DNA from: a virus
IMG/VR virus record: IMGVR_UViG_3300008266_000015
DNA: 64,000 bases
Reading direction: 5' to 3' (one strand)
Made by a program: the position numbers and the translations under genes. Positions 29,734-56,023 of the stretch are shown piece after piece. Each line of letters opens with the position of its first letter. Within the stretch, counting starts at the first letter, position 1. The notes below the pieces were generated by a model, which had not been told where the DNA came from, did no database searches, and saw only the letters and a list, made by a program, of their open reading frames with translations.

Positions 29734-31087
29734 AATTATATTATTAGCTTTATTTACTACCAAACTATATTGCCAAATACCAGGCCCAACAACAAATTGG
29801 TATTTTGGAGTTAATGCTGGCATTACTTTCAATAGTGGTATCCCTATTGCTTTAACAAATGGTGCTTTAATTACAACAGAAGGGGTAGCCACTATATCAG
29901 ATAATTCAGGAAATTTACTTTTTTATACAGATGGAGTTACAGTTTACAACAGAATCCATAATGTAATGACTAATGGAACAGGATTGTTTGGACATGCTTC
30001 TTCTACACAATCCGCCATTATTGTTCAAAAACCAGGTTCAACAAACATATATTATATTTTTACTTCCACTATTGATGCTGGTTCAAATGGAATATGTTAT
30101 TCAATAGTAGACATGAATTTAAGTGCAGGATTTGGAGCAGTTACTATTAAAAACACTTTTTTATATGCTCCCTCTTGTGAAAAACTATGTGCAATTAGAC
30201 ATTGCAACAATGTAGATATTTGGGTAGTATCTCATGACTGGAATTCAAATGTATTTAGAGTATGGTCTGTAAATAGTTTAGGAGTAGGAACCACACAAAT
30301 ATGGTCATCAGCAGGCATTGTCCCAACAGGTATTGTTCAAAGTGCTTATGGTCAATTAAAAGCAAGTTCAGATGGAAAAAAACTAGCCGCATGTTATTAT
30401 GGTTTTACTGGAGGTGGAATTAATAGATTACAAATATATGATTTTAATAATTCCACAGGCGTTGTTTCTAATGCTATTACTTTAGCAACAGATGTTGGTT
30501 TATATGGATGTGAATTTTCTCCTGATAATAAATTATTATATGCCTCTACAAACCAAGGATTGCTACTACAGTTTAATCTATGTTCAACACCCGTCTCTAG
30601 ATACGTTGTTTCAAACAATGGACCATTTATTGGATCGCTTCAAATAGGACCTGATAGAAAAATATATGTTGCTAGAAATCAAACAAGCTTATCAGTAATA
30701 AACAACCCAAATATTGTTGGTGTGGGTTGTGGTTTTTCCGATTTATCCGTTTCATTAGCAGGAAGAGCAGGAAGAATGGGTTTACCTAACTTTGCATCCT
30801 ACTATTCTACTCCACAATTTGTACTTTCAAATCCAACAATAAATTGTACTACTGCTTTATTTAGTGTTCCTCCTAATATAACTAATTGCTCTAATTCAAC
30901 AACTTATACTTACTTATGGAATTTTGGAGATGGAAATATCTCTTCTAATCCAAATCCATCTCACACATATTTATCACCAGGAACTTATATTGTTACTTTA
31001 CAAATAATAGAAACCTGTTTTACAATAACAATAAACAAAACAATAACAATTACAAACGGAATAACAACCTCAGTCTTTACTAACTAA
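29726..31087 (+). CDS. Secreted beta-propeller plus PKD domain protein (Bacteroidota T9SS-cargo type)
   Basis: Signal peptide; NWYFG..AGI.F, LLFYTDG, YGCEFSPD, LQIGPDRKIY, GLPNF; PKD WNFGDG...NPSHTY. Confidence 0.8.
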   Translation: MYKIILLALFTTKLYCQIPGPTTNWYFGVNAGITFNSGIPIALTNGALITTEGVATISDNSGNLLFYTDGVTVYNRIHNVMTNGTGLFGHASSTQSAIIVQKPGSTNIYYIFTSTIDAGSNGICYSIVDMNLSAGFGAVTIKNTFLYAPSCEKLCAIRHCNNVDIWVVSHDWNSNVFRVWSVNSLGVGTTQIWSSAGIVPTGIVQSAYGQLKASSDGKKLAACYYGFTGGGINRLQIYDFNNSTGVVSNAITLATDVGLYGCEFSPDNKLLYASTNQGLLLQFNLCSTPVSRYVVSNNGPFIGSLQIGPDRKIYVARNQTSLSVINNPNIVGVGCGFSDLSVSLAGRAGRMGLPNFASYYSTPQFVLSNPTINCTTALFSVPPNITNCSNSTTYTYLWNFGDGNISSNPNPSHTYLSPGTYIVTLQIIETCFTITINKTITITNGITTSVFTN

Positions 31088-31092
31088 ATTTT

Positions 31093-31659
31093 ATGAAAAA
31101 ATACATCTTTACATTGATTTTAATATTAATTACTTTAATATTATCGGCTCAAGTCCCAACACCAAACCCTGCTAATAATACTTCTAACTGTATAAATGAT
31201 GTTCAAGTATATGGAGATCAAGTAATAGATCCATTAGCTACATATTCATTTACAATTGCTCCTGCTATTCCATTTACCTCTATTTCTAATGGAGATCAAA
31301 TCCAAGTAACATGGACTACACCTGGGGTATACATTATTACAATTACAGAAACAGTGGGAATATGTTCATCAACCTCACAAGCAACTATAAATGTATTGCC
31401 TCCAACTATACCATTGGTTATTACAGATGCAATATGTGTTGGTAATGGAACAATTACTTTAACTTCTACCCCATTAGGTACATCCCCTATATTTAGTGGA
31501 ACAGGAGTAACAGGAAATACATTTGATGCAACTGGTTTAGCCCCAGGAGTATATCCAATTACTTTCACTTCCACTGATGCAAATGGATGCCCAATGACGG
31601 GAAATGGTTCAATTACTATTACTCCTCCACCACCCCCACCAACTATTTTTACTAACTAA
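31093..31659 (+). CDS. Secreted Ig/PKD-like protein
   Basis: Signal peptide; VTWTTPG.Y, TDANGC; Pro-rich C-terminus. Confidence 0.72.
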   Translation: MKKYIFTLILILITLILSAQVPTPNPANNTSNCINDVQVYGDQVIDPLATYSFTIAPAIPFTSISNGDQIQVTWTTPGVYIITITETVGICSSTSQATINVLPPTIPLVITDAICVGNGTITLTSTPLGTSPIFSGTGVTGNTFDATGLAPGVYPITFTSTDANGCPMTGNGSITITPPPPPPTIFTN

Positions 31660-31661
31660 AA

Positions 31662-32267
31662 ATGTTAAATAAAACAATAATCATATTTTTATATATTTTT
31701 GTTTTAAATGTTTTATTAATTAAAGCACAGCCTCAAATAATTAGCTTGTGTGATACCTCTCCTATCTATAAAAAATATTGGATAGAATCAATACCGGGAT
31801 ACGATAATGTTTGGTCTATATATCCTGAGGTAGAATATCAACTTCAACTCGACAATACAATAGTGGTTCAATGGATAAATTCAGGAACATATACTATAGT
31901 TGCTCAATATGTTAGTGAGAATTGTAATAGCAAAAGTGAACTCCAGATACAAATAGAAGAATGTCCTGATGTTTTTATTTATATTCCAAATAGTTTTACC
32001 CCAAATGGAGATAATATAAATGATGTGTTTGAGGCATATGGGATTGGAATAGTTGAATTTAATATGATGGTGTTTAATAGATGGGGAGAACTTATATTTG
32101 AAAGTAATAAAATAGAAAACCATTTAGATGGATTACACATGGGAGGATGGGATGGAATATATAAATTTACATTTTGTCAAGACGATGTATATCTTTATGT
32201 TATAAAATATAAAGGAATTAAAACATCTGAGAGAATAATTTATGGTAAAATATCATTAATAAAATAA
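31662..32267 (+). CDS. Protein with T9SS type B (gliding-motility-associated, CHU_C) C-terminal domain
   Basis: Signal peptide; IYIPNSFTPNGDNINDVF, FNRWGELIFES, GWDG, DVYLYVI, G.ISLIK. Confidence 0.88.
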   Translation: MLNKTIIIFLYIFVLNVLLIKAQPQIISLCDTSPIYKKYWIESIPGYDNVWSIYPEVEYQLQLDNTIVVQWINSGTYTIVAQYVSENCNSKSELQIQIEECPDVFIYIPNSFTPNGDNINDVFEAYGIGIVEFNMMVFNRWGELIFESNKIENHLDGLHMGGWDGIYKFTFCQDDVYLYVIKYKGIKTSERIIYGKISLIK

Positions 32268-32299
32268 AACATTCCCAATATTTATAATAAAATAATTAA

Positions 32300-33670
32300 A
32301 TGGCAAAAGTCTTAGAAAATATATTTAATCCTTCAATAGATGAAATAGCTCAAACATACACAATTCAGTCTTGGCACGTTTCACAATCAGTAGATGCATT
32401 AACGGCTGCTGAGGCATATGATATTTCAATTAGTGGATCTTTAAATGTTACCGGATCATCAAATGTAACTGGTTCACTATCAGTAATAGGAACTGTAGTA
32501 AACGGAACTGTAGGTAATGATGCAGCTGGACTATTCTCACATGCTGAAGGTAACTCTTCAATAGCATCAGGTAGTTATTCTCATGCTGAAGGAGAATCTA
32601 CTCAAGCAGTTGGATATGCTTCTCATGCTGAAGGAGATAGTACTTTAGCCTCAGGTTCATATTCACATGCTGAAGGTAACTCTTCAATAGCATCAGGTAG
32701 TTATTCTCATGCTGAGGGAATAGGAAGTAAAGCAATTGGAAATGGTTCACATGCTGAAGGAAATGGAAATGTAGCTAGCGGAAATGGTTCACATGCTGAA
32801 GGAAGTGCAACAATAGCTAGTGGTCCTTATAGTCATGCTGAGGGAACATCAACAATAGCTAGTGGTAATACTAGTCATGCTGAGGGAACATCAACTATTG
32901 CTAGTAATAATAATAGTCATGCTGAGGGAGTAAAAACAATAGCAATGGGAATTAGTACTCATGCTGAAGGTTCTGGTTCAATTGCATCTGGTTCATTTTC
33001 ACATGCTGAAGGGGGATTCACAATTGCATCTGGTTCATTCTCACATACTGAAGGATTAATTACTAAAACTGTAGGAATTGCTGCTCATGCTGAGGGAAAT
33101 AGTACTCAAGCAATAGGAAATGCTTCACATGCTGAAGGTGCTTTCACTCAAGCAATAGGGGGTGCTTCACATGCTGAAGGTTATTATTCGTTAGCTTTAG
33201 ATTTTTATTCACATGCTGAAGGATATGAAACAACAGCTTCAAATTTTGCCTCACATGCTGAAGGAATTAACACAAAAGCTTTAGGTCCATATTCACATGC
33301 TGAAGGGAATAGTGCTATAGCAATAGGACAATATTCACACGCTGAAGGATTTAGTACTATAGCAATAGGAGATGCTTCACATGCTGAGGGAACTAATACA
33401 GTAGCATCTGGTTCATTCCAAACAGTAGTAGGTTCATATAATGTTCAAAATAATACAGGCTCTAAGTTTATTGTTGGTATTGGAAATTCAACAACTAGGA
33501 AAGATGGATTTACAGTAGATGCAGATGTTAATTTATCTGGTTCTGTTATGATTCCAACAAACACAGCAAATCCTTCCTCTCCAAAAACAGGATCTATGTA
33601 TTTCAACCCAACAACTAATTTATTATATATTTATAATGGTACAGCTTGGAAATCAGCATCTTTTTCATAA
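32300..33670 (+). CDS. Fibre/adhesin-like protein with YadA-head-like 14-aa repeats
   Basis: 21 tandem H[A/T]EG repeats; C-terminal GSMYFN...LYIYNGTAW tail-fibre-type motif; ATATTTATA motif upstream. Confidence 0.78.
   Translation: MAKVLENIFNPSIDEIAQTYTIQSWHVSQSVDALTAAEAYDISISGSLNVTGSSNVTGSLSVIGTVVNGTVGNDAAGLFSHAEGNSSIASGSYSHAEGESTQAVGYASHAEGDSTLASGSYSHAEGNSSIASGSYSHAEGIGSKAIGNGSHAEGNGNVASGNGSHAEGSATIASGPYSHAEGTSTIASGNTSHAEGTSTIASNNNSHAEGVKTIAMGISTHAEGSGSIASGSFSHAEGGFTIASGSFSHTEGLITKTVGIAAHAEGNSTQAIGNASHAEGAFTQAIGGASHAEGYYSLALDFYSHAEGYETTASNFASHAEGINTKALGPYSHAEGNSAIAIGQYSHAEGFSTIAIGDASHAEGTNTVASGSFQTVVGSYNVQNNTGSKFIVGIGNSTTRKDGFTVDADVNLSGSVMIPTNTANPSSPKTGSMYFNPTTNLLYIYNGTAWKSASFS
32533..33415 (+). 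repeat. 42-bp coding tandem repeat (21 units, CATGCTGA core)
   Basis: Includes an exact copy of about 50 bp at ~32538 and ~32664. Confidence 0.9.
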
Positions 33671-33702
33671 ACTAAATTTGAAACCAATTAAAACCACATA
33701 TC

Positions 33703-34479
33703 ATGAAACCGCAAAACACTCTCAAAGGGTTGTTAATAGTGGTTATGTTAGTACTTAATACTTTATTTGGTTTTTCACAATTAACATGTGATCTGGATGA
33801 TCCATATTTAAATCATTTTCAATATTCAATACCCTCATTTATACAATTATACAATGGAGGGTATTGTGTTTCCTCCTCATACATCTCAGATACAACTATC
33901 TACATGAAGTTCTATCCTGAGGGGAAAAACGGAATCATATATTGGGGCTATTCCTCACCAATGGGGTATCCTTTATATGTGGATAGTATTAAAATATATG
34001 ATAGTAGTTGTCGTTTAATTTCTATAGGACAAGGAGTAAGTGGTCTATCTAACTCATTATATTATGTTAAGTTCGTTATACGAACCACATTTATTGATAA
34101 TTTCTGTCCATATTTCCTCCCTGCTAATCCATTAATGGTTACTTTTGGAATGATAAAATTAGAGAAAATAGAAATGTATATTCAAGTGGATTGGACTACA
34201 TTATCCGAATCAAATAGCGACTACTTTGTAGTACAATACAGCTATGATTTGAACAATTGGAGAAATGCAACTAATATACCTTCATCTCAAAATAGTTCAA
34301 CAAACAGATACTATTCAACAAAATTTACCCCACCATATTCAGGTATGGTGTATGTTAGAATTGCAGAATACGATTTGAATGGAAACGCTATATATAGCAA
34401 TCCAGAATATATTTATTTTAATTTTGAAAACCAAAATACATCTGTTTATGATTTAGCAGGAAGACTTTTAAGAAATTAA
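33703..34479 (+). CDS. Secreted protein with Bacteroidota Ig-like domain and truncated type A T9SS CTD-like end
   Basis: Signal peptide; PL.V.F, WTT.SE.NSDYF.VQ.S.D, YVRI.E.D.NG, VYDLAGRLL. Confidence 0.7.
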   Translation: MKPQNTLKGLLIVVMLVLNTLFGFSQLTCDLDDPYLNHFQYSIPSFIQLYNGGYCVSSSYISDTTIYMKFYPEGKNGIIYWGYSSPMGYPLYVDSIKIYDSSCRLISIGQGVSGLSNSLYYVKFVIRTTFIDNFCPYFLPANPLMVTFGMIKLEKIEMYIQVDWTTLSESNSDYFVVQYSYDLNNWRNATNIPSSQNSSTNRYYSTKFTPPYSGMVYVRIAEYDLNGNAIYSNPEYIYFNFENQNTSVYDLAGRLLRN

Positions 34480-34561
34480 GCTAAATGATTGGGATTACAA
34501 AATTTTTATTTATATATTTACTTCAATAAAAAAAATAAATAATTAACTAAAAACAAGTTTT

Positions 34562-34807
34562 ATGAAAAACACAAATCAAAAATCACTTAAGCGCCGAATG
34601 AATCGCACAGCAATTCTTTCATTTTACAATGCACGTTATTTTAATGGAGATATAGCTCGTTTATCTGAAAAAACAGGCTATTCAACTTCACACATTTCAA
34701 ATGTAATTGCTGGGCGCCGTAGCGTTTCAAACACACTTGCTGATGCAATGTACTACATTTCTTGTCGCCGTACTAAAAATTCTGAAGTTTGGGCAAAACA
34801 AGCATAA
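34562..34807 (+). CDS. Helix-turn-helix DNA-binding protein
   Basis: IARLSEKTGYSTSHISNVIAGRR. Confidence 0.7.
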   Translation: MKNTNQKSLKRRMNRTAILSFYNARYFNGDIARLSEKTGYSTSHISNVIAGRRSVSNTLADAMYYISCRRTKNSEVWAKQA

Positions 34808-34822
34808 AATTTGTTAATTTAA

Positions 34823-34852
34823 CGGGTGGCTCTACGGGGCTACCCATTTTTA
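34823..34852 (+). terminator. Intrinsic terminator
   Basis: GGGTGGCTC-TACG-GGGCTACCC followed by a T run. Confidence 0.75.
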
Positions 34853-34861
34853 GTTTAGTTT

Positions 34862-35381
34862 ATGAAAAATAAAATTATCAACTTTTTCACACATTTAATT
34901 AAAGGAAAACTAATTACTATTCCGTTAGTACGGGACGGTAAACCAACAGGTCAATGGGTTGAATGTTATAAAAACGATAAGTATTATAAAATTTTAGTTT
35001 CCCAATATGGAGAACCACTCCCAAACCAAATAGAGGTAGAACCAATAAAAGACTTATAATATGTTTAGAATAGGACAAAAAGTAATATGTGTTGATGATA
35101 GGCTTGATCCTAATCGAAATTTACCTCCATTGGTTTTTCCTAAAAAAGGTACTACATACACTATACGAGGAATATATGTCGCTAGAACCAACGAAACAGC
35201 GCTTTTACTTGAGGAAATAGTAAATCCATACCAAACACGTGATGGACAAGAGATAGGTTTTAAATCAAGTAGATTTCGTTCATTAGTGGAGGATGGTTTA
35301 ATTGAGGAATTGTTGAGTAGAATAATTGATGAGGTAAAAGAGGAAATTTTAAAGGAAGAGTTAGCTGGGATTACAGATTAA
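34862..35381 (+). CDS. Two hypothetical proteins (34862-35059, 35061-35381)
   Basis: Second begins F.IGQKVICVDD (SH3/KOW-like start). Confidence 0.6.
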
Positions 35382-35414
35382 ATTTTTATATATTTAAGTA
35401 TAAGAAAAATAAAA

Positions 35415-35548
35415 TAACCTGTACCCTTGAAAAACTCGTATTGTTCAGAGAGGAGTCATATTCGTATATGGTACACCCACTAAAGCAGGTGTCAGTATTT
35501 GGAGTACACTTTGATAGATAAGCAGGTTAGTTCCGATATAAAAGGGTA
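35415..35548 (+). ncRNA. Unnamed structured RNA with terminal pseudoknot
   Basis: TAACCTG/CAGGTTA and TACCCTT/AAGGGTA pair in crossed order; internal ACTC-GTATTG/CAGTAT-GAGT, CATAT/ATATG, ACACC/GGTGT; follows the promoter at ~35366. Confidence 0.55.
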
Positions 35549-35566
35549 ATAGAATAAGGAGCAAAT

Positions 35567-35679
35567 AGTCAGGTGGCGGAATTGGTAGACGCTCATTCTT
35601 ATGTATATGTTATAAACGCATAAGATGATAAAAATCGAGATAACAGGTAGGTTTACAGGTTCGAATCCTGTCCTGACTA
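35567..35679 (+). ncRNA. tRNA-like element 1 (113 nt, elongated anticodon region)
   Basis: AGTCAGG/CCTGACT acceptor stem, GCGGAATTGGTAGACGC D-arm, ACAGG-TTCGAAT-CCTGT T-arm. Confidence 0.8.
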
Positions 35680-35681
35680 CA

Positions 35682-35900
35682 ATGAGTAAGAGATACTCAG
35701 CAGACTTGTCAATGTCTCATTTAAACTTGATAGGGTATTAGACTGGACATCCTGAAACGCCAGTCTCGTGGGAATAAAGGGACAGCACAAACCCTCCCAG
35801 TAGTGTGATTTTAGAGTTCATGTGGTAAGACACTAATGGTTAGAGTTTTTAAGAAAACAAAACCGTTAAAATCCACTCACCAGTAATCTCAAGGTGGGGA
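35682..35900 (+). ncRNA. Unnamed multi-hairpin RNA between tRNA-like elements 1 and 2
   Basis: TGAGTA/TACTCA, GACTGG/CCAGTC, GGGA..AGGG/CCCTCCC, TAGTGT/ACACTA, ATGGTT/AACCGT, CACC/GGTG stems; no ORF in the track. Confidence 0.55.
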
Positions 35901-35905
35901 AACAT

Positions 35906-35982
35906 AGTCAGGAGTGTAATGAGGCATGGTGCCAAGTCCTTTTAAAGGTTACTTATTACAGGTTCGAATCCTGTCCTGACTA
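35906..35982 (+). ncRNA. tRNA-like element 2 (77 nt, degenerate D/anticodon arms)
   Basis: Same acceptor and T-arm; CC-TTTTAAA-GG loop. Confidence 0.75.
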
Positions 35983-35997
35983 CTAAATAAATAAATA

Positions 35998-36855
35998 ATG
36001 AAATTTAAACTACTAAAATTAATCCCATTAAATGTATTTCTAAAATTTAGAATATGGGTAATATGTAAATTCTTACCTTATCTTTTAAACAACGAAAGAA
36101 CACCTTATTCTAAAGATGGATATGAATTATCATTTAAAGATGATTTTGATGAATTTAATAAATCAATTTGGCAAGACATGCCATATTTTGGACATAGATT
36201 TCATCCAGGCAATATTGTAAATAATGGAACTGCACCTTATCAATATCATGATTCAAGTTGTATATCTGTAAAAGATTCTATACTTAGATTAGAATGTAAT
36301 GATACACCTACCACTATTAACTATGTTGATTATAATGGAGATTATTATGGAACATTTAAAATACCATACCAAGTTGGTTGGATACAAACCATGCCTAATA
36401 CATTTCAACAAAAATATGGTTATTTTGAAATTAGATCAAAATCTCCAAATAGTGGTGGAACTTGGCCAGCGTTTTGGTTAGCATCTACTGAGGCTTGGCC
36501 TCCAGAAATTGATATATTTGAAATTTATACTTCTGATGGTCAAACACGATCTACCTCAACTATTCATTGGGGAAAAGATCCAAAACATCCAATGACTGGA
36601 TTTGGTCATACAACACTACCGTTAAATTCTGATTTCTCAGTGTTTGGATGTGATTGGAATGAAAAAAATATTAAAATATATTATAACGGTTGGTTAGTTA
36701 GAGTTTTTCCTACACCAAATGATTTTAAATATGAAATGAATATTATTATTAACAATGGTGTTCAAACTGATGAAACAGGTTTAAATAGAGAAAGCATAAT
36801 ATCACCAAATTATTTTGAAGTAGATTATGTAAAAGTTTGGAAAAAAATAAAATAG
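35998..36855 (+). CDS. Glycoside hydrolase family 16
   Basis: F.DDF, YGYFEIR, WPAFWL, catalytic EIDIFE, VDYVKVW. Confidence 0.92.
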   Translation: MKFKLLKLIPLNVFLKFRIWVICKFLPYLLNNERTPYSKDGYELSFKDDFDEFNKSIWQDMPYFGHRFHPGNIVNNGTAPYQYHDSSCISVKDSILRLECNDTPTTINYVDYNGDYYGTFKIPYQVGWIQTMPNTFQQKYGYFEIRSKSPNSGGTWPAFWLASTEAWPPEIDIFEIYTSDGQTRSTSTIHWGKDPKHPMTGFGHTTLPLNSDFSVFGCDWNEKNIKIYYNGWLVRVFPTPNDFKYEMNIIINNGVQTDETGLNRESIISPNYFEVDYVKVWKKIK

Positions 36856-36938
36856 TCAGGTGTCTGAATTGGCTAAGTACCCTGAGCCCATCTTAGTAAT
36901 GGGTAGGGGAGATACAGGTTCGAATCCTGTCCTGACTA
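36854..36938 (+). ncRNA. tRNA-like element 3 (85 nt; extended stem with CTTAGTA loop, Leu-UAG-like)
   Basis: Same acceptor and T-arm; CCCT-GA-GCCCAT/ATGGGT-AGGG stem. Confidence 0.8.
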
Positions 36939-36955
36939 CAAAAAGAATTAAAATT

Positions 36956-37171
36956 ATGAAAGGTGCAATGACATTAAAACATCGTAAAAATATTGTAAGA
37001 GAAGTGAAATCTCGTATCAGTAAAGAGATTAAGGATTACAACGATAAAGAAGTTGGACAACAAGAATCTATTCTTGATGAATATATTGAAAAAGTATGTG
37101 TTGAAAAGGGATGGGAATTAGTTCATTTTTATTGTGAAGAAGGAAAAATTTTAGATAAGATATTAAAATAG
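36956..37171 (+). CDS. Hypothetical protein (71 aa)
   Basis: Likely start MKGAMTLK; its TAG stop overlaps element 4. Confidence 0.65.
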   Translation: MKGAMTLKHRKNIVREVKSRISKEIKDYNDKEVGQQESILDEYIEKVCVEKGWELVHFYCEEGKILDKILK

Positions 37172-37268
37172 TCAGGTGGCGGAATTGGTAGACGCAGTTA
37201 GTTATAAGCACCAATAAGACTTGTAACAACGTACCGATAGTATGCAGGTTCGAATCCTGTCCTGACTT
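37170..37268 (+). ncRNA. tRNA-like element 4 (99 nt; 11-bp anticodon-position stem, variable arm)
   Basis: Leu-type D-arm; GTT-A-GTTATAAG/CTTGTAAC-AAC; GTAC/GTAT arm; same 3' end. Confidence 0.8.
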
Positions 37269-37282
37269 CAAAAATAAATAAT

Positions 37283-37519
37283 ATGAGACGATTAAACGAA
37301 AATGAGTATCTAATTTTAGAAAATTGGAAAAATGTTAAAATTGAAGATTGTGATTTAGGTATACAATTATGGTGTAATAATTTGGTTGGTAAGGGTATTT
37401 TGCGTAGATATAACAAACAATACATTTTAACAAAATTAGGAAAAAAACATACTGAGATTGGTAGACCAAAATTTACATGGGTACAAAATGATTGGTTCGA
37501 AAGTGTTGAGTTATTATAA
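37283..37519 (+). CDS. Hypothetical protein (winged-helix-like end)
   Basis: LVGKGIL...YILTKLG. Confidence 0.6.
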   Translation: MRRLNENEYLILENWKNVKIEDCDLGIQLWCNNLVGKGILRRYNKQYILTKLGKKHTEIGRPKFTWVQNDWFESVELL

Positions 37520-37522
37520 AAT

Positions 37523-37630
37523 AGTCAGGTGGCGAAATGGTAGACGCTAGAAAGAATGTAAAACAATTGAGTAATCTCTGCCAGTATCATTCACAGGGGT
37601 TACATACAGGTTCGAATCCTGTCCTGACTA
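37523..37630 (+). ncRNA. tRNA-like element 5 (108 nt)
   Basis: GCGAAATGGTAGACGC D-arm; GTAATCTCTG/CAGGGGTTAC hairpin; same 3' end. Confidence 0.8.
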
Positions 37631-37670
37631 CAAAAGGGGTTCTTTGACATAATAAGAAAGGAAAATTAAT

Positions 37671-37967
37671 ATGGAAACAATGTATTTTACTTTTGGAGTA
37701 CTAACGATGGTTGCTATGATTTTGGTTGGAGCAATTGTTTATGGTATTGTAAAGGTGTTTAAACAAGAAAAACAAATCAAAGATATCCAAAAGGATATTC
37801 AATGGAATTATAATGATATGAGTGATCGATTTAGAGATGTTTATCAGAAAATTGAAAACAGTTATGTAAATTCTAGAGACATATCTAACGCATATACAGA
37901 TATGCGGATTGATAAACTGGAAGACAAATTAACAGGAAATAGCACAAAAAAATTAATTAAAGGATAA
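37671..37967 (+). CDS. Membrane-anchored coiled-coil protein
   Basis: N-terminal transmembrane helix. Confidence 0.7.
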   Translation: METMYFTFGVLTMVAMILVGAIVYGIVKVFKQEKQIKDIQKDIQWNYNDMSDRFRDVYQKIENSYVNSRDISNAYTDMRIDKLEDKLTGNSTKKLIKG

Positions 37968-38008
37968 ATTTAACCCGTCGAAGAACCCTTTTTTATATAT
38001 TTATTAGT

Positions 38009-38275
38009 ATGGGAAAAATTTGTTTTTCAATCGTTTTTTTATTAACAGTATGGGGTTGTAAAACTAATACATTTTATACTGATCATATTATAGTTACAAA
38101 AAATGATGGATATAAAGATACTATCCAATATTCGTATTGGAATAAATTTGAAATGGATGCTTTCAAATTAGAATGGATATTAAAACAAAAAAATATCAGA
38201 ATGAAAGATGTGCAATTTATAGATTTTACCCAAGGACCAAAAATTGAATTTAACAAAAAATACCAACCCAAATGA
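38009..38275 (+). CDS. Putative lipoprotein
   Basis: Hydrophobic N-terminus ending VWGC. Confidence 0.55.
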   Translation: MGKICFSIVFLLTVWGCKTNTFYTDHIIVTKNDGYKDTIQYSYWNKFEMDAFKLEWILKQKNIRMKDVQFIDFTQGPKIEFNKKYQPK

Positions 38276-38883
38276 AGTTATTTTTAAACACATTACTGTT
38301 TTTGATTTACATAACAGGCTATAGTCAATCATTACAACTGGAGATAGTAGATAATTGTTCCTCAGGATACGTAGTTATCAATAACGATGAATCACCCGTC
38401 GGATATACAATGATTCATAATGGTGTAGATATATTATGTATTCTCCCCACAACAACAGATACTATATTTGATTTACCTAGTGGAGAATATATATTACGTT
38501 CTAATGGTGAAGCACATGAACAAGTTTCATTTACTATTTCAAACACAGTTATAGACGCTACATTACATATCCCATATACCTCAGTTTGTATTGGAGATTC
38601 ATATATAACACCGATTTTAAACATTTACTCCTCATATAATAATGTCTATTGGGATTTTGGTGATGGAAACATTTCATATGATGATATCAATCCAGTTCAC
38701 TACTATACTCAACCAGGTATATATACCTTAAAAGCAATAGTAAGTGAAGGTCAATGCTCTAAAATATTTGAAAGTAAGATTGTAGTTGAAAATATAAATG
38801 GAATTCAAGCCACAAATCGATTACAATACAGAACAACTAGTAACTATTATAATGTAGAAGGTAAAGTAGTAAAAAAACTATGA
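38272..38883 (+). CDS. Secreted PKD-domain protein with truncated CTD-like end
   Basis: Signal peptide; WDFGDG..NPVHYY.QPG.Y; YNVEGKVVK. Confidence 0.75.
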   Translation: MKLFLNTLLFLIYITGYSQSLQLEIVDNCSSGYVVINNDESPVGYTMIHNGVDILCILPTTTDTIFDLPSGEYILRSNGEAHEQVSFTISNTVIDATLHIPYTSVCIGDSYITPILNIYSSYNNVYWDFGDGNISYDDINPVHYYTQPGIYTLKAIVSEGQCSKIFESKIVVENINGIQATNRLQYRTTSNYYNVEGKVVKKL

Positions 38884-39595
38884 ACAACGATATTGAACGT
38901 AAAGAGTTTTGGGAAAAAGAGCTATCCAAAACTAAATCAAAAAAATGGGATGACAACGATTTAGAACAAGCATTTGTTTCGGCAAGAAAGTTATTTCAAA
39001 ACAAGTTACCACAATTTGAAACGTTTTATGACTATAAAAAGTCATTAGTTAATAAATAGGATTACAAGATCTATATCTGTATATTCAAGCAAATAAAAGT
39101 TATATGTTTAAATGGTTTAAAAAACAAGATAAGGACGAAAACAATACGGAAATGCTCGTATCAGAAATGGATGCGGTTGCAATAGCATTAGAACAGTCAC
39201 GTGAAGAAGGTTTAGATGTTGAGGTTGTAACATGGGCACTTCGATACATGAAGGAAAATCCATCACTCACCATATCGGAAGCAATTACAATGGGATACTA
39301 CGAGTGGGTTAAATAACAGACCAAGTTGATATTTATAACGGAACAGGTTGTGTGAACAAGTTTACTAACTTAACACACTATTCCCATGAAATATCTAATT
39401 ACTCTGCTATTGATATTTACTATATCGTGTAGTCAAGATTTCAACAAACCACGCTATCAGAAAATAATTAAAACACGACCTCACTGGCAACGGAAACAAA
39501 TTCCGTTTTACAGACAAGGAACATATCGTGATCGTAACGTGAAAAAACAAGCAAGACAGAAATTAATTCAACCGCCAACAATTAATATTAATTGA
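38880..39595 (+). CDS. Three small hypothetical proteins (38880-39059, 39104-39316, 39386-39595)
   Basis: The last has a lipobox-like TISC. Confidence 0.55.
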
Positions 39596-39654
39596 AAAAT
39601 TAGGATTACAGGATTTACATTTGTATATTCAAGCAACCTAAAAAAATAAAAGTT

Positions 39655-40467
39655 ATGTTAGAAAATTTGATTATTACACCTAAACGAGGTAGAGGTAGAC
39701 CAGCAAAAGACGCAACACAAACTATGTCAGCATTTAATCCTGAAGAAGTTAAACTAATCAGAGGCGAATCATTGAAATTCAATGAAGCACTATTTGTACC
39801 TTTCAAAACAGGTACCGAATTTGATCTAATTTTATCAACCGATGGTGGTTTAATGCCCGGCACATCGATGATGATTGCTGGTGGACCAGGATCAGGTAAG
39901 TCAACATTAGTAACAGATATGTTATCTAAGTTTACAAAGCAAGGTTTGAAATGCTTGTTAATACAAGGCGAAATGGATGAAATTGGGCATTACAAATATT
40001 GCCGAAGAATGCCTTCATTTGGTTGTGTTCAGACATTGTTTTTGAAAAACCACATGGATAACGTGAAAGAAACATTAGAATATGTTTTTAACTTAGGTTA
40101 CGACGTTATTGCAATTGATTCACTTGCGGAGGTATTAGCAATGTATCGCGATCAAAACGGTGGTTCAGCAAAACAAGCCGAATCATGGCTATTGAAATTA
40201 CAAGATTCAGTTAAAAAAGGAAACAACGCATTAGGTTATTATACATCGTTTGTTAATATTCAACAAATGACGAAAAGCGACGAGTTTGCGGGTTCAAACA
40301 GGTTAAAGCATATGATGGAAGCATATTGCGCAGTTGAACGTAGCAAAGATGGACTTGAACGTTCAATGCATTTCGAAAAGAATCGTGATTGCGATAAAGA
40401 TTACAAAATCTACTTTTCAATATATAAGGACGGAGTTCATTACGCTTTAAATCAAGCAGAAGAATAA
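39655..40467 (+). CDS. RadA/Sms-like RecA-fold ATPase with N-terminal AT-hook
   Basis: KRGRGRP; EFD.IL..GGL.PG; Walker A GGPGSGKST; IAIDS; AGS..LKH; KNR. Confidence 0.8.
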   Translation: MLENLIITPKRGRGRPAKDATQTMSAFNPEEVKLIRGESLKFNEALFVPFKTGTEFDLILSTDGGLMPGTSMMIAGGPGSGKSTLVTDMLSKFTKQGLKCLLIQGEMDEIGHYKYCRRMPSFGCVQTLFLKNHMDNVKETLEYVFNLGYDVIAIDSLAEVLAMYRDQNGGSAKQAESWLLKLQDSVKKGNNALGYYTSFVNIQQMTKSDEFAGSNRLKHMMEAYCAVERSKDGLERSMHFEKNRDCDKDYKIYFSIYKDGVHYALNQAEE

Positions 40468-40523
40468 AAACGGGGAGTACACGCTCCCCTTTCATATATT
40501 CAAGTAAATAAAAAAGATATATT

Positions 40524-41300
40524 ATGAAAAACCATTTCATTCCTATCGATAACAAAATCGATAAAGCAATTGCATTTGCTCAATCATTAGATAACAAATC
40601 GTTTCGTACACGAAACCGAATTAAACAACCCTCAGCATATATTGATACGCTGAGTGTTGTTCAGAATCTACAACAACAAGGTTGGGAAATAACAGGAGTA
40701 TGTGAACAACGCGGTAAAGATAGAAAAATATCAAACAACTATGTTCAATTGGAACACCCTGACTTTAAAATGATGAATAAAAACAAAGTCGAAGGTATAT
40801 CAAATATCTATGTTTCAAATAGTTGCGACGGAAGAAAACCGCTTAATTTAGATTTCGGAATGTATCGTTTAGTTTGTTCAAACGGATTGATTCAACGTAC
40901 CCCGTATATTGAACATAGAATTAAACATACACCGCAAAGTATTGAACGATTGCCAATGATTATGCAAAGTGTAAATAGCGCAGCACAAAGAGTCCTTAAA
41001 AGATTCGATTCATTAAAAACAAAGGAATTGAAACCTGCACAGCTGGAGGAACTAGTAAATAAAGCAGCACGTTTAAGATTTGACGATGACGTGATGGATG
41101 CTTCTCAACTACTCACTGTATATCGAGATGAAGATAAAGGAAACGATTTATGGTCGGTATATAACAGGATTCAAGAAAATTTAATCAAAACAAATATGTT
41201 ACTAGATCGTAACGGACGACCGTTAGCAGGAGTAAACGATGTTAAAAGCGACATTGTTTTAAATCAAGCATTATTTGGATTGATAGAAAATTATGCTTAA
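40524..41300 (+). CDS. DUF932/DUF945-family protein
   Basis: NSCDG, GMYRLVCSNGL, H, R.EDKGNDLWSVYNRIQEN. Confidence 0.8.
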   Translation: MKNHFIPIDNKIDKAIAFAQSLDNKSFRTRNRIKQPSAYIDTLSVVQNLQQQGWEITGVCEQRGKDRKISNNYVQLEHPDFKMMNKNKVEGISNIYVSNSCDGRKPLNLDFGMYRLVCSNGLIQRTPYIEHRIKHTPQSIERLPMIMQSVNSAAQRVLKRFDSLKTKELKPAQLEELVNKAARLRFDDDVMDASQLLTVYRDEDKGNDLWSVYNRIQENLIKTNMLLDRNGRPLAGVNDVKSDIVLNQALFGLIENYA

Positions 41301-41357
41301 AAATTAGGATTACAAAATCAATTATCATATATTTAATCAAACGAAAAAATAAAAGTT

Positions 41358-42158
41358 ATGCTAGATCTAAATTCAAACACATTCCTTAGTAAGGAGCAAA
41401 TTAAATCAAAAGCAAATTCGATTTTTGCTACTAAAGGTGCTGAAAACACCTCACAACACTATTCACACATTCCAACATTCAAAATCATTGAAGATATGGA
41501 ATTGTTAGGATGGAAAGTTTCTGATGTTAAAGAGGTTAAAGCGCGTAAAAACGCTGGATTCCAAAAACATTTAGTTGTATTTCGTAATGAGGAAATTGTT
41601 ATTGATGGTAAAGATGGAGACACAGTATTTCCACAAATCCTATTAACAAATAGTTCAGACGGAAAAAATGCATTTACATTCCGTGCCGGACTTTTCCGTC
41701 TTGTATGTGAGAATGGTTTAGTTATTTCAACACAGGATTTTGCTGATTTAAAAATCAGACATATGGGTTATGACTTTGAAAAGTTACAGAAAACCATTAC
41801 CAATATTGTTGAGAAACTTCCACTCACAGTTGAGTCAATGAATCGTTTTAAAGAAACACAATTGGAGGAGGAACAAATCCTACAATTCGCTAAAGATGCA
41901 CTTACAGTACGTTTCGGTGAAGAGGAAATGGAACGCATTACAATTGATTACACTACATTTATTCAACCAACACGTAGAGAAGATGCAGGAAATGACTTAT
42001 GGTCAGTGTTTAACCGCATTCAAGAACGAGTAATGGATGGAGATTTCCAATACAGTTATGCAGCCAAAATACGTAAAGCACGTAAAATCAAGAACTTCAA
42101 TCAAGATTTAGATTTGAATTCAAGACTATATGAGTTAGCTACCACATATTGCCTATAA
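41358..42158 (+). CDS. DUF932/DUF945-family protein (paralog)
   Basis: NSSDG, AGLFRLVCENGL, RH.G, RREDAGNDLWSVFNRIQE. Confidence 0.85.
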   Translation: MLDLNSNTFLSKEQIKSKANSIFATKGAENTSQHYSHIPTFKIIEDMELLGWKVSDVKEVKARKNAGFQKHLVVFRNEEIVIDGKDGDTVFPQILLTNSSDGKNAFTFRAGLFRLVCENGLVISTQDFADLKIRHMGYDFEKLQKTITNIVEKLPLTVESMNRFKETQLEEEQILQFAKDALTVRFGEEEMERITIDYTTFIQPTRREDAGNDLWSVFNRIQERVMDGDFQYSYAAKIRKARKIKNFNQDLDLNSRLYELATTYCL

Positions 42159-42219
42159 AAAATAAATTGGGGAGCTTGGACTACAAGTTCCCCTTTTATA
42201 TATTTAAAATAAAAAAGTT

Positions 42220-42651
42220 ATGGAAAAAGAATTTGTACCTTATGAACAAGCATTAGCTTTAAAAGAATTAGGATTTAATGAAGAGTGTTTAACATCTTAT
42301 CATTATAATGGAACATTAATAGATATGTGGAGTGCAGTGGGTTTTGTTACAAATAGTAGTTTAATAAACCCTGAACAATTTAATGCTAATAATAATTCTA
42401 AACTTTTAAAAGATTATATTGATAATCCTTTTACAGCAGCACCAACATTCTCACAAGCATTTAGATGGTTTAGAGAGAAGTATAATTTACATGGGATAGT
42501 TTCATATTACGGAAAAAATCAATGGGATATAGAACTACTTGATTACAAAGGAAACCAATTAGTTGAAATAGAAAACAACACATTTTGGACTTATGAAGAA
42601 GCAGAACTTGCTTGTTTAAATAAACTAATTGAAATTATAAAACAGAAATAA
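42220..42651 (+). CDS. Hypothetical protein, KEFVPYEQALALKELGF family
   Basis: Paralog of 7327..7686. Confidence 0.75.
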   Translation: MEKEFVPYEQALALKELGFNEECLTSYHYNGTLIDMWSAVGFVTNSSLINPEQFNANNNSKLLKDYIDNPFTAAPTFSQAFRWFREKYNLHGIVSYYGKNQWDIELLDYKGNQLVEIENNTFWTYEEAELACLNKLIEIIKQK

Positions 42652-45600
42652 TGGAAGAAGAATTTACACCACCATCACAGGTAAACAGATTGGAAATAAT
42701 CAATCACGCCAAAAACGATAAACCAGTAGGACGAATCCTTACTTTGTATAAGGAATTAGGACATTTTGAACACATTGAAGTAGTATATCAAGATAACGGA
42801 AAAACATTAAAAATATTTTTAGGATGATAATAAGCATTATTGGAGGTACAGCAATTGTATTAAGTTTGATTGTACCATATTTTATAAAAAATAAACGAAC
42901 CGGAAATTTTATTGGAGCAGTACTAGCTGCTTTTGCTTGTGGTTTGTTTTTAGGTGAATTAATTACTAAATATTTTTCATAATGAGCGGAGGAGCATTTG
43001 ATTATAATCAATCTCGCATTCAATATATAATTGAAGGCATTGAAGAGGAAATTGAAAAAAATGGAAAGAAAATCGACTACGAACCGGGATACAAAAGATA
43101 TGAATGGGAATCAGAATACCATTACGAATATCCACCTGACATTATTGAGGAATTTAAAAATGGAATACGCATACTAAAACAAGCATATGTCTATGCTCAG
43201 CGAATTGATTGGCTACTATCAGGAGATGATAGAGAAGATTCATTTCGTAAACGATTGAAAGAGGATTTAGCACAATTAAACCCACCTACTTTTTGGGGTG
43301 AAGAAAGCGGATACTAGGATTACAAAATCTTTAGTTGTATATTTAGGTAAATAAAAAATTATGGAAAGAATAGAAATTAATGGAGTATGGTATGTTAAAG
43401 AAGATACCATACAAAAAGAAAGTACTATATTAGAGCCTACTCATTTTGAAGGATACTCTGTAGAAAATGATGATTTTATTTTTGAAGCAACTATTATATT
43501 TAAAGATGATGGTACTCCTTATTATGGTATTACTATTGAATGTACTGATAAAAGATTCCCAGATAGGAATAATTGGAAAGTAGAACATTGGGATAATGAT
43601 AATTGGTTAAGAGGTATATTAAACAATAATCCTGATTCATGGAAAGAATTACCTGAAATGAGTAGTGGAGATATTCATTTTTTACAAACATTTTTACAAT
43701 ATTTAAAAGATAAAGAATGGTTATGAAAGAAACACTTGAAGAAGCTGCTGAAAAGTATGCTAAACAATTTGATTATGCAGAAGATTCTTCACCACCAATA
43801 GATTTTGTTGAAGGTGCTAAATGGCAACAAGAAAGAATGTATAGTGAGGAAGAAGTATTAGAGTTATTACTAAAACATCAATCTGATTATAGGAGTTCCG
43901 TAAGAAATACATCTCCTTTGGATTGGAGTTTTGATATTAAAGATTGGTTTGAACAATTTAAAAAGAAATAAAATGGGAAATCTAAAACAAAAACTTACCA
44001 CTGAGGAATGGGACGAATTAATAATCTATACTAAACCAGGATTTGTTGAAAAACGGATTGAATTATCTATTCAAGAGGCAGCAGAAAAATACACATCAAC
44101 ATCTTTTAACAAACAAGATCTGTATGATGGGTTTATAGCTGGAGCAAAATGGATGATGGAAAACATTAAAACAAACTCAAAATGACAGCAGACGAATTCA
44201 ACACCAAATATAAAGACTATTTAGAGGAAGGACATTACGGACTAGATATAGACATTCCATCCATAACTAAATATCTAGATGAAATATTTCAGGGCCTAAT
44301 TAAAATACCTGGATTTCAATATTCACAAATAAAAGATAAATACTCTAATTGTAGATTCTATACTAACTTACTTGAGGTATTAGGACATAAATTAGGAGCA
44401 ATTGTATCAAATGAGGTGGAACGTAGAGTTTCTATGATGATGGAAGTATATTATGATCACTTAAATTATAAGAAAGATTAGGAATGCAAAATCTTTAATT
44501 GTATATTTAAAATAAAAAAGGTTATGAACGATTGGTCAGCATTTAATGTAAAGTATTTAGCGGTACCATTTACTATGTTGGTATTTGGTGTAGTAATAGG
44601 ATTTGGTATATCCGATTCCAAAAAGAAACCAACTAAAAAATACCCAATAGAAGTACAAACTCATTGGTCAACAGATCAAGGTGCATCTTATCCAATTATG
44701 GAAGCAGATAGTGTTATAGGTGATACTATATACAAAGATGGTATTAGTATAGTAAATAAAAACATTTTAAATATAACATTTAAATGAAAAACATACACGT
44801 AATAAACCAAAACATCTACATCACTAATGATGAAGAAATTAAAGAAGGGGATTGGGTTATTTATAAAAATAAAGTTTTTAAGATAGGAATAGGTGATAAT
44901 GAACTTTTTCATTTAAGTAAAAAAATCATCCTAACAACAGACCAAGATTTAATCAAAGATGGTGTACAAGCTATTGAAGATGATTTTCTTGAATGGTTTG
45001 TCCAAAATCCAAGTTGTGAGGAGGTTGAAGTACAATGCAGATATAATTTTTATGCAGGTCAAGATTTAACACATTACAAAATAATCATTCCAAAAGAATC
45101 TAAACTAATTAATAACTGTCCTAAGTGTGGTTTAGATTTAATCATAAGAGAACATTGTACACCAATTTGTACAGATATTGATTGCCGTGGTATTATACTT
45201 AGTAATGAAACATTAAGAGAATGGGCATCAAAAAAAGAATCTAAACAAGAAACACTTGAAGAAGCAATGGAAAGTTATTTAGATTCTCCTACGCCCCACT
45301 CATACAAAAGAGCAGTAAAATTTGGTGCTAATTGGCAACAAAAACAGATATTAGAATTTCTTTATTTAGAAATAACAGAACGTAGAGATTATTCAGCATC
45401 TAAAATGTGTGAAAAGGTAATAGAGTTTATTGAACAATTAAATACTAAGAAATGAAAGAAACACTTGAAGAAGCTGCTGCTAGACATTTTAATAAAGAAG
45501 ATTTAGTTGAAGGTGTTAATATTCAATATGTACTTCAATGTGCTTTTATTGAAGGTGCTAAATGGCAACAAGAAAGAATGTATAGTGAGGCAATTGAGTT

Positions 45601-46777: not shown

Positions 46778-46825
46778 TTAGGATTACAAAACCTTTAATT
46801 GTATATTTAAATAAAAATAAGAGTT

Positions 46826-55648: not shown

Positions 55649-55873
55649 ATGAAAACAGATGTTAATTTAGATATGTACAGAAACGTTGATATAATTTCAG
55701 CGGAACTAAAAATAGCTATTGATGCTCTTGAACAAGATGTTGATGATTTCTGTTCCAATTTTGTTAAAACACAAGAGGACTTGCAACTAGTTTCATTGTT
55801 CCAGTCCATGTTGAATGATTTATACAATGATTTGGAAAACATTAACAACATAAGAGGTGTATTATACAACTAG
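55649..55873 (+). CDS. Hypothetical protein, paralog of 54149..54373
   Basis: MKT.VNL.MY.N.D.IS..L ... MLNDLY.DL ... VLYN. Confidence 0.75.
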   Translation: MKTDVNLDMYRNVDIISAELKIAIDALEQDVDDFCSNFVKTQEDLQLVSLFQSMLNDLYNDLENINNIRGVLYN

Positions 55874-55950
55874 GAATACAAAAAATACGTTCGTATATTT
55901 ATCTCATAAGAAAAGCATTTAAAAACGTTTAATTAATTGATTAAGCATAT

Positions 55951-56023
55951 AGTCAGGTGGCGGAATGGATGGGCAACGTCAACTAATTAATAGATACAGG
56001 TTCGAATCCTGTCCTGACTACCA
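55951..56023 (+). ncRNA. tRNA-like element 6 (73 nt including encoded CCA)
   Basis: AGTCAGG...ACAGGTTCGAATCCTGTCCTGACTACCA; no canonical anticodon arm. Confidence 0.78.

Follow-up and report, generated by a model that had tools for sequence, protein, structure and literature searches.

Clusters of tRNA genes in phages are usually read as tools for codon usage or against host defence, and that of phage T4 is matured by RNase P. In mitochondria and in bacterial tRNA-mRNA operons such as the tufB operon, tRNAs act as punctuation, their excision setting the ends of the mRNAs, and mitochondrial stop codons may be incomplete at the joints of tRNA and cistron. The tRNA region of phage T5 (NC_005859) contains RNA1 (30501-30644) and RNA2 (32959-33083), annotated as tRNA-like stable RNA, and interleaves small ORFs with tRNA-shaped genes of the same orientation, which overlap or lie a few bases apart; T5.065, for instance, adjoins tRNA-Lys, and hegC overlaps tRNA-Ser. 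In T4, the species 1 and 2 RNAs (rnaC, rnaD) and segB are located inside a co-oriented tRNA cluster. Promoter/stem-loop (PeSL) cassettes mediate modular shuffling in T4-type phages (PMC2839356, PMC4122927), and in an engineered tRNA scaffold used to express recombinant RNA in E. coli a foreign RNA takes the place of the anticodon arm, whereas the other arms (acceptor, T and D) are kept for processing and stability (PMC3753655).

The window analysed here, 64 kb (64,000 nucleotides) of the 93.8-kb contig of an uncultured phage from a lake, contains an array in which tRNA-like elements are interspersed with RNA and protein genes, and one further element away from it:

35366..35410, plus strand: promoter-like motif upstream of the array, one mismatch away from the TAGGA...TATATTTAA repeat, at which the array transcript presumably starts
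35412..35566, plus strand: leader RNA ahead of element 1, ORF-free, with relatives in other loci
35567..35679, plus strand: tRNA-like element 1, 113 nt, Leu-type D arm, long non-anticodon interior, Rfam tRNA 38.7 bits, exact 23-mer
35680..35905, plus strand: non-coding RNA cargo, 226 nt, ORF-free, limits exactly those of elements 1 and 2
35906..35982, plus strand: tRNA-like element 2, 77 nt, D region deviant, Rfam tRNA 26.4 bits, below gathering score
35998..36855, plus strand: GH16 glycoside hydrolase gene (PF00722, E 2.1e-14), TAG stop overlapping element 3
36854..36938, plus strand: tRNA-like element 3, 85 nt, anticodon-like arm over-long, Rfam tRNA 20.9 bits
36956..37171, plus strand: ORF71, no Pfam or PHROG match, TAG stop overlapping element 4
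37170..37268, plus strand: tRNA-like element 4, 99 nt, Rfam tRNA 40.2 bits, discriminator T, not A
37283..37519, plus strand: ORF78, no Pfam or PHROG match, own TAA at 37517-37519, 3 nt 5' of element 5
37523..37630, plus strand: tRNA-like element 5, 108 nt, Rfam tRNA 38.4 bits
37671..37967, plus strand: ORF98, small protein, matched only weakly in PHROG, by lipoprotein and Rz-like spanin families
55871..55915, plus strand: full promoter-like repeat (repeat match) ahead of element 6
55951..56020, plus strand: tRNA-like element 6, 70 nt, exact 23-mer, away from protein-gene gaps, apparently with its own promoter

The order of the array was correctly given in the preliminary description: element 1, the ORF-free 226 nt, element 2, GH16, element 3, ORF71, element 4, ORF78, element 5 and ORF98. 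An exact 23-mer (first copy 35656-35678) occurs six times on the plus strand versus not once in 100 shuffled sequences, with five copies in the array and one, missing from that description, at 55997-56019; AGTCAGG stands 70-113 nt 5' of each of the six copies and pairs with it. The acceptor (7-bp stem) and the T arm (TTCGA-type loop) are identical in all six elements, and elements 1, 4 and 5 possess a full leucine-type D arm with GG in the D loop. A standard anticodon arm, defined as a 5-bp stem with a 7-nt loop at standard spacing from the D and T arms, is not present in the window elements; element 3 has a predicted doubled arm of a 6-bp stem with a 7-nt loop plus a further 4-bp stem. When 34500-39000 was scanned with Rfam (E up to 1), the elements were matched by the tRNA model alone, with elements 1, 4 and 5 above and elements 2 and 3 below its gathering score of 29 bits and the interiors aligned as 13-53-nt insertions; Rfam holds no model for the family. 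ARAGORN called one of the six elements (35906-35983 as Leu(taa)), the anticodon stem of which is poorly paired by inspection. Single-sequence folds of the elements are modestly better than those of shuffled sequences (z -1.3 to -2.6). The interior of element 2 is related to interiors in two other loci (L065 and L011), that of element 1 has no relative in ~1.6 Mb of loci, and none of the six interiors matches the rest of the window over at least 15 nt, as considered for antisense or guide RNAs.

T5 RNA1 resembles the elements in its leucine-type D arm, its T arm and a non-anticodon interior of ~80 nt. In contrast to T5, which has two such RNAs with acceptor sequences of their own, one invariant frame with unrelated interiors is used six times in the window; sequence similarity between T5 and the elements is confined to generic tRNA parts, and the Rfam tRNA model misses T5 RNA1. 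The T4 cluster differs in that it consists of real decoder tRNAs, with neither an invariant frame nor a hypervariable family.

The elements are members of a large family, confined to phages, which combines a leucine-tRNA-type frame with unrelated interiors. The exact 23-mer is found on more than 120 IMG/VR contigs, many of them multi-copy, and five phage records carry 2-11 copies each, on one strand throughout and mostly in one or two clusters, as opposed to only 18 matches in 185,579 species genomes, all on MAG contigs, mostly of Bacteroidota; the hosts are probably Bacteroidota. Cultured phages lack the element and show generic matches to the D and T arms of tRNA-Leu alone. The interiors of 160 elements fall into 137 clusters, vary from ~4 to 110 nt without a standard anticodon arm and are, as a set, mildly structured (mean z -0.59). 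Some recur amid unrelated flanks, such as a four-member cluster in four contexts. Compensatory variants in the T and D stems indicate that the RNA is under selection. Since a canonical tRNA is absent from the 64-kb window, the tRNA-cluster context of the elements is deduced from relatives (L156, L140, L145 and L150), in which they reside within tRNA clusters.

The phage's long promoter-like repeat, with TAGGA at its start and a TATATTTAA-like box at its end, is matched by regex at 35 sites of the window, a few of them atypically spaced. In accordance with the earlier failure to find an internal promoter, none of them falls within 35411-39056, the next one being at 39057. The motif upstream of the array shares spacing and downstream box with the copies at 52532 and 57505, and BLAST finds similarity of 35368-35413 with 57507-57552. 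A sigma-70 promoter scan, which is uninformative for Bacteroidota-type hosts, gave matches no commoner than in shuffles, and the only terminator-like site between 35.4 and 38.0 kb, a hairpin of 5 bp within the GH16 ORF, is weak. Gaps upstream of the elements measure -2 to 3 nt, and 14-40 A-rich nt lead from an element to the next ATG; the median distance from promoter motif to start is 22 nt. T at -1 is found in 81% of the elements versus 71% of 249 canonical phage tRNAs and A at -2 in 66% versus 59%; the base after the discriminator is C in 92% of those tRNAs and, judged by eye, in the majority of the elements.

The 226-nt RNA has a 97% identical copy flanked by two canonical tRNAs in L051 and diverged copies in L055 and L129. 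In all four phages it starts directly after the upstream tRNA or element, and in the window, L051 and L055 it ends exactly at the next one. Eight of its 39 predicted pairs show compensatory changes; Rfam gives no match. The leader has relatives in L084 (84% over 152 nt), L014, L057, L145, L151 and L061, the ends being conserved and the middle variable. Thermodynamic fold tests are not significant for the 226-nt RNA and unexceptional for the leader (z -0.39); the case for both RNAs is built on conservation.

The preliminary description had offered two explanations, tRNA punctuation of a polycistron or integron-like gain and loss of cassettes. The former is the better-supported half, with tight packing, no internal promoter repeat, tRNA-type flanks and an RNA cargo set directly against tRNA or tRNA-like ends in four phages, although we infer the cleavage itself. 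One upstream promoter motif, the tRNA flanks, the abutting 226-nt RNA and natural variants that break at element ends make it likely that RNase P and RNase Z punctuate the transcript, as something that RNA genes bring with them and not as what they are for. On the sequence evidence we thus far consider it probable, with considerable room for doubt, that the elements are RNA genes of a widespread phage family, co-transcribed with the cargo and excised like tRNAs, with an incidental TAG overlap and an exchange of modules. In each element, the constant acceptor stem, T arm and, usually, leucine-tRNA-type D arm would frame an unrelated folded insert which replaces the anticodon and variable arms. 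Judged from the motif positions, a single transcript from ~35.4 kb would comprise the leader RNA, five elements, the 226-nt RNA and four small protein genes. Host RNase P and the 3' tRNA-processing enzyme would excise the elements, which would also free the 226-nt RNA and monocistronic mRNAs, the short A-rich leaders of which resemble those from the phage's own promoters.

The TAG at 36853-36855 ends GH16 and that at 37169-37171 ends ORF71, with T as base -1 and AG as bases 1 and 2 of the respective element. The earlier statement that the elements supply the stop codons thus holds for these two ORFs, but not for ORF78 with its own TAA. Such an overlap arises because T at -1, common in the tRNA genes of these phages, meets the A1-G2 of the family. 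Among 151 family members, open frames of at least 50 codons, some of them possibly spurious, reach the element in the TAG frame 14 times versus 16 and 15 times in the other two, so TAG is neither preferred nor avoided as a stop and the overlap looks incidental. It appears to be a side effect of tight packing and is in itself probably unimportant. As in mitochondria and the tufB operon, tRNA-shaped units directly adjoin cistrons, but here the units are non-decoding, their processing is putative and cleavage would destroy the stop codon, not complete it. It seems rather unlikely that the leucine-tRNA-type frame is a portable module for expression, processing and exchange in which removal of the TAG by RNase P leads to a timed shut-off via non-stop mRNA rescue. 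Unrelated RNA payloads and neighbouring small genes would then be swapped by recombination at the constant ends and expressed from promoter-less polycistrons, and the yield of the upstream protein would be set by how translation and RNA maturation compete in time.

At eight orthologous loci, the ends are constant and the interiors are of six unrelated kinds; the flanks are 89-90% identical, the interiors 42.8% versus 43.2% after shuffling. Relatives at 75-81% ATPase identity carry none of the window cargo. In the near-identical population contigs L166, L162 and L161, homology stops within a few bases of an element 3' end. The break coincides with the 3' end of element 5 both in L166 and in the L161 tail, where the junction, possibly an assembly chimera, has a 29-nt repeat common to other elements; at the L162 junction stands a canonical tRNA without the 23-mer. 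As mosaic joints are expected at the gene borders of any tight phage region, these junctions, which are plain gene borders as well, are no proof that the constant ends play a special part. The cargo of relatives, the interiors between constant ends and the population junctions agree with PeSL-type shuffling, in which replacements are bounded by the repeats. In both systems, small accessory genes of hyperplastic regions are edged by short non-coding repeats that are conserved, and relatives differ there by insertion, deletion or replacement, but PeSLs are promoter-terminator DNA motifs, whereas the repeats here are RNA genes with variable payload. The window phage moreover possesses its own PeSL-like promoter repeat. 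Modular exchange is real; it appears to need no integrase and is most simply explained by homologous recombination. In the evolution of the array, whole modules and interiors would have been swapped with breakpoints at the constant ends.

An integron-like system, with the 23-mer as attachment core at which a site-specific recombinase moves cassettes of element and cargo, would agree with promoter-less ORFs behind a single upstream promoter-like motif, with the different cargo of relatives and with population junctions at element 3' ends; as in integrons with attC and IntI, promoter-less units stand in a row behind one promoter, each edged by a repeated structured element. We nevertheless regard it as highly improbable. 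The integrase to be expected elsewhere in the genome is not among the 40 ORFs of the window scanned with Pfam, the array has no attC-type core, the phage has the gene repertoire of a lytic T4-like phage, no 23-mer is present at the L162 junction and the compensatory changes in the arms point to selection of these tRNA-shaped repeats at the RNA level. Furthermore, the elements occur in unrelated phage lineages without a common neighbouring protein; when the ORFs of 138 loci and two window segments were clustered, the widest cluster, DUF932, reached 17 of 139 sources and the remaining ones reflected phage lineages. Of the cassette proposal, turnover at element borders is seen in the three population contigs and the eight loci; an integron mechanism finds no support. 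There is equally little to commend selfish miniature mobile elements with a superficial tRNA look, the terminal inverted repeats of which would be GTCAGG and CCTGAC with a TA target duplication. T at -1 and the discriminator A do place TA on both sides of the 6-bp inverted repeat and identical elements stand in different flanks, for example in L013 and L016, but canonical tRNAs of the same phages share T at -1 and C after the discriminator, which makes these flanks a feature of tRNA genes. The G18-G19 and T-loop motifs are conserved, the copies are one-stranded and mostly in one or two clusters, an association with a transposase is absent, and empty sites differing by the element plus one TA were not seen in close relatives.

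That the elements are mainly punctuation marks which separate the cistrons of a promoter-less operon, with the interiors as filler, has a small chance of being correct. Their tight alternation with ORFs, the absence of the internal promoter repeat and the short A-rich leader after each element fit, and in other phages one small ORF fills 13 of 53 inter-element gaps; 15 of those gaps are, however, under 150 nt. Moreover, no ORF adjoins element 6, which is preceded by a promoter motif of its own, L156 carries 11-13 elements amid a near-complete canonical tRNA set (~20 anticodons) in one array with few ORFs between, some interiors recur in phages with unrelated flanks, and interiors reach ~110 nt where a bare minihelix would suffice for processing. 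Working decoder tRNAs with unusual anticodon arms, such as leucine tRNAs or suppressors, could account for the three elements above the Rfam tRNA threshold, the leucine-tRNA-type D arm, the 7-nt loop on a stem in element 3 and a family member in L072 with a canonical Ile(UAU)-type body. Such a function is hard to reconcile with the rejection of five of the six window elements by ARAGORN, with interiors that lack the standard arm and with a family of which only 43 elements are called tRNA, their anticodons being scattered and partly impossible (2- and 4-base), and with the many elements still present in phages with a full canonical tRNA set; we consider it a very poor candidate. RNA genes excised like tRNAs remain the preferred reading.

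In this family, a non-decoding tRNA frame recurs many times per genome and across hundreds of uncultured phages, with a payload turnover as fast as that of known anti-defence loci, and RNA-based manipulation of the host is a candidate role for the payloads. The window adds that the frame also stands between the protein genes of a promoter-less unit, that an unrelated 226-nt RNA is delimited by tRNA-shaped neighbours and that natural variants of one phage population break at tRNA-like units. If the proposed processing is correct, the array would be, to our knowledge, an unusually clear example of mRNAs punctuated by tRNA-shaped units in a phage, and would parallel in nature the laboratory tRNA scaffold, which the elements resemble in design; the scaffold is a laboratory construct, the purpose of which the elements may share in nature. 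In the literature searched, also with the core sequence and with most subscription journals outside coverage, the family is undescribed; a preprint on bacterial tRNA mimics concerns other RNAs.

As for the protein cargo, the GH16 gene has no relatives in IMG/VR by peptide-pattern search, and in the variant L164/L173 it is split into 155 and 87 aa. ORF98 belongs to a cluster of 10 loci, its relatives adjoining family elements in nine other loci.

The exact 23-mer occurs in six copies in the window compared with none in 100 shuffles, and each belongs to a tRNA-like unit starting with AGTCAGG, whose T arm and 3′ acceptor strand it makes up. The preliminary description held up as an observation with respect to order, elements and stop codons, its GH16 cargo being upheld by Pfam PF00722, while a sixth element had been missing from its list.

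Array elements, element 6 and the 226-nt RNA in the window
35567-35679, plus strand, element 1, 23-mer and AGTCAGG
35680-35905, plus strand, 226-nt RNA, with homologues in comparison contigs at L051:1985-2209, L055:5720-5934 and L129:3080-3345
35906-35982, plus strand, element 2, 23-mer and AGTCAGG
36854-36938, plus strand, element 3, 23-mer and AGTCAGG
37170-37268, plus strand, element 4, 23-mer and AGTCAGG
37523-37630, plus strand, element 5, 23-mer and AGTCAGG
55951-56020, plus strand, element 6, 23-mer and AGTCAGG

The Rfam tRNA model placed three elements above and two below threshold, with 13-53 nt of interior handled as insertion in every matched element, and ARAGORN accepted a single window element, as Leu(taa), whose anticodon stem is in our reading poorly paired. 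Element 6 has its own promoter repeat upstream and no adjoining ORF. About 450 nt after it (within 55871-56470) are devoid of a listed ORF of at least 120 aa, and a lone TAGTCAGG at 56222 in this ORF-poor stretch, with no T arm behind it, may represent an additional RNA gene or an element that has decayed.

A sequence scan recovered the 23-mer in at least 120 IMG/VR contigs, many of them multi-copy, and five phage records carry 2-11 copies each on a single strand, grouped for the most part into one or two clusters. The 185,579 species genomes searched yielded only 18 matches, all in MAG contigs and mostly of Chitinophagia, Sediminibacterium, Flavobacterium, Saprospirales and other Bacteroidota, so that the 23-mer is not a host tRNA sequence. 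No such element was found in cultured phage records, and neither Rfam nor the searched literature yielded a description of the family. Elements are 54 to about 180 nt long, usually with a D arm of the class II leucine-tRNA type and with G18-G19 and the T-loop motifs retained, while the interiors of the 160 elements having both ends fall into 137 clusters, 120 of which are singletons. As T-stem and D-stem variants are altered on both sides, the comparison shows selection on the predicted RNA fold. Of the unique elements, ARAGORN called 43, with scattered anticodons, some of two or four bases. A decoding role is argued against by L156, a family-carrying contig in which canonical tRNAs with about 20 anticodons, a nearly full set, stand beside 11-13 elements in one array, so that the elements are unnecessary for decoding. 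At L072:4958-5029, a canonical-looking tRNA-Ile(UAU) body carries the family acceptor stem, and almost the same body at L156:3995-4068 has an ordinary G-starting acceptor stem; it looks as if a decoder tRNA and the family had exchanged acceptor stems. A second T-arm-like hairpin, its loop of the GTTCGA type, lies within some interiors (L085, L091, L024, L032), which suggests nested tRNA-like modules.

The preliminary description had offered integron-like cassette gain and loss at the 23-mer as one reading, of which the turnover was borne out. Relatives with a downstream ATPase 75-81% identical share none of the cargo; several of them, L140, L145, L149 and L150 included, have family elements within tRNA arrays about 7 kb upstream. 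Within the window phage itself the array is stable in most contigs, from several samples, while three deviate. The 7.8-kb contig L166 is 99.6% identical to the window from 37633 on, 3 nt past element 5, and its upstream part is unrelated and without an element; identity is lower over the initial ~38 nt of the match, which places the joint between 37631 and 37670. In L162, the element 1 slot is occupied by a canonical tRNA(CAT), preceded by a different family element, and the match to the window (98.9% identity) starts with the base directly behind the discriminator. The same slot of L161 holds still another element, whose T stem is compensated, and the sequence beyond element 5 is unrelated there; this last joint contains a 29-nt repeat common to other elements and could have arisen in assembly, which the other three joints cannot. 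Eight orthologous loci of a different phage lineage have flanks 89-90% identical, and their constant ends enclose six unrelated interiors, which are 42.8% identical versus 43.2% when shuffled. Population joints and these eight loci together show that exchange really takes place at or within the constant ends. GH16 (35998-36855) is split into 155 and 87 aa in the population variant L164/L173 (ENA ERZ27247978), with a difference of about one base over 12.3 kb; this cargo is therefore dispensable in at least some genomes.

An integron mechanism, on the other hand, is not supported, as no integrase was present among the 40 window ORFs scanned with Pfam and clustering of the ORFs around family loci revealed no protein accompanying the family. 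The simplest account is homologous recombination, which would act between identical ends of 16-30 nt, along with selection for joints at gene borders. The exchange is similar to the PeSL-mediated shuffling that occurs in T4-type phages (PMC2839356, PMC4122927). At 39655-42158 in the window, an ATPase gene with weak matches of the DnaB/RecA/KaiC type precedes two DUF932 paralogues; this arrangement recurs near family elements in many phage contigs that otherwise differ (17 and 7 of the 139 sources).

The other reading, tRNA punctuation of a polycistron, is probable with respect to processing, but not as the purpose of the family. Bacterial RNase P prefers U at −1. In their flanks the elements look like genuine tRNA genes of these phages. 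T stands at −1 in 81% and A at −2 in 66% of the family elements, with C after the discriminator in most by eye, and in 71%, 59% and 92%, respectively, of 249 canonical tRNAs from the fetched phage loci. The 226-nt RNA, 97% identical in L051 and diverged in L055 and L129, always begins right behind the discriminator of the upstream unit and, in the window, L051 and L055, ends directly before base 1 of the next. It is flanked by canonical tRNAs in L051 and by a canonical tRNA plus a family element in L055, and an element lies upstream of it in L129, so that elements and tRNAs are interchangeable as its end-markers. The distances from elements 2-5 to the next ATG (15, 17, 14 and 40 nt) are A-rich and resemble the leaders behind the promoter repeat (median 22 nt). 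Flanks, RNA ends and short leaders thus make tRNA-type processing of the elements likely. Punctuation is nevertheless secondary given the context of element 6, the gaps between elements in other phages, of which 15 of 53 are shorter than 150 nt and only 13 are filled by a single small ORF, and the recurrence of some interiors in phages with unrelated flanks. The 226-nt RNA, with no Rfam match, is strongly conserved in its 5′ and 3′ blocks, while its inserted middle varies, and some of its pairs are compensatory; tRNA or tRNA-like genes delimit it in every case. The leader at 35412-35566 is likewise conserved (84% identical over 152 nt in L084), its ends being kept and its middle differing in L014, L057, L145, L151 and L061; in L145 and L151 the relative, too, is located just ahead of an element of the family.

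The TAG stops of GH16 and ORF71 are indeed composed of base −1 and bases 1-2 of elements 3 and 4, while ORF78 has a separate TAA stop, 3 nt ahead of element 5. The overlap arises because the T at −1, common to canonical tRNAs, meets A1 and G2 of the family, and it is incidental. For 151 elements with enough upstream sequence, the element TAG closes an open frame of at least 50 codons 14 times, and the other two registers reach the element 16 and 15 times; an ORF stops 3-60 nt before the element in 74 cases, usually at 3-13 nt. Tight packing is thus the rule and overlap its one-in-three register outcome. ORFs of phage T5 likewise abut or overlap tRNA 5′ ends. The suggested loss of the stop codon on cleavage is sound as logic, as a cut at or next to −1 would remove the stop and leave a non-stop message, and no selection for or against this shows in these data.

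A long promoter-like repeat with a TAGGA start and a TATATTTAA-like box at its end matched a regex 35 times in the window, in a few cases with atypical spacing, and mostly every 0.3-0.7 kb across 39-59 kb. None fell between 35411 and 39056, and a one-mismatch variant with identical spacing lies directly ahead of the array at 35366-35410, which makes the 3.6-kb stretch look like a single transcription unit from its motif positions. The unit would comprise the leader RNA, element 1, the 226-nt RNA, element 2, GH16 and element 3, followed by ORF71, element 4, ORF78, element 5, ORF98 and three further ORFs. A sigma-70 promoter scan, with hits no more frequent than in shuffles, was uninformative. 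Three Logan contigs sharing window 35061-35381, independent short assemblies, all end at about 35441, 60 nt past the stop of a 106-aa ORF and just beyond the promoter-like motif, which hints at population variation at the array start. The region 39057-58900 is a PeSL-like hyperplastic region; each of about 30 promoter-like repeats there precedes a small ORF, the leader between them being short and A-rich, and the leading TAG of the repeat often lies at the end of the preceding ORF.

The nearest described case is the tRNA region of phage T5, where tRNAs, small ORFs and homing endonuclease genes are interleaved and RNA1 and RNA2 are annotated as tRNA-like stable RNAs without an assigned function, RNA1 combining a leucine-type D arm and a T arm with about 80 nt of non-anticodon interior; the T4 tRNA cluster contains the species 1 and 2 RNAs and segB. 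Unlike in T5 and T4, a single invariant frame is reused many times per genome and in hundreds of uncultured phages with hypervariable payloads, and in the window also serves as spacer between protein genes. Our working guess, from the turnover and by analogy to tRNA scaffolds (PMC3753655), is that the interiors may be stabilised effector RNAs which bind host or phage factors.

The window is AT-rich (G+C about 31%), is coding almost entirely on the plus strand and encodes a family-B DNA polymerase, a clamp loader, a GroEL-like chaperonin, exonucleases and sugar-modifying enzymes, the gene set of a large lytic T4-like phage. The CHU_C type IX secretion domain at 31662-32267 points to a probable Bacteroidota host. 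The JGI metagenome contig 3300008339 Ga0114878_1000018 (93.8 kb) is 100% identical to the window in the compared stretches (29998-42855).
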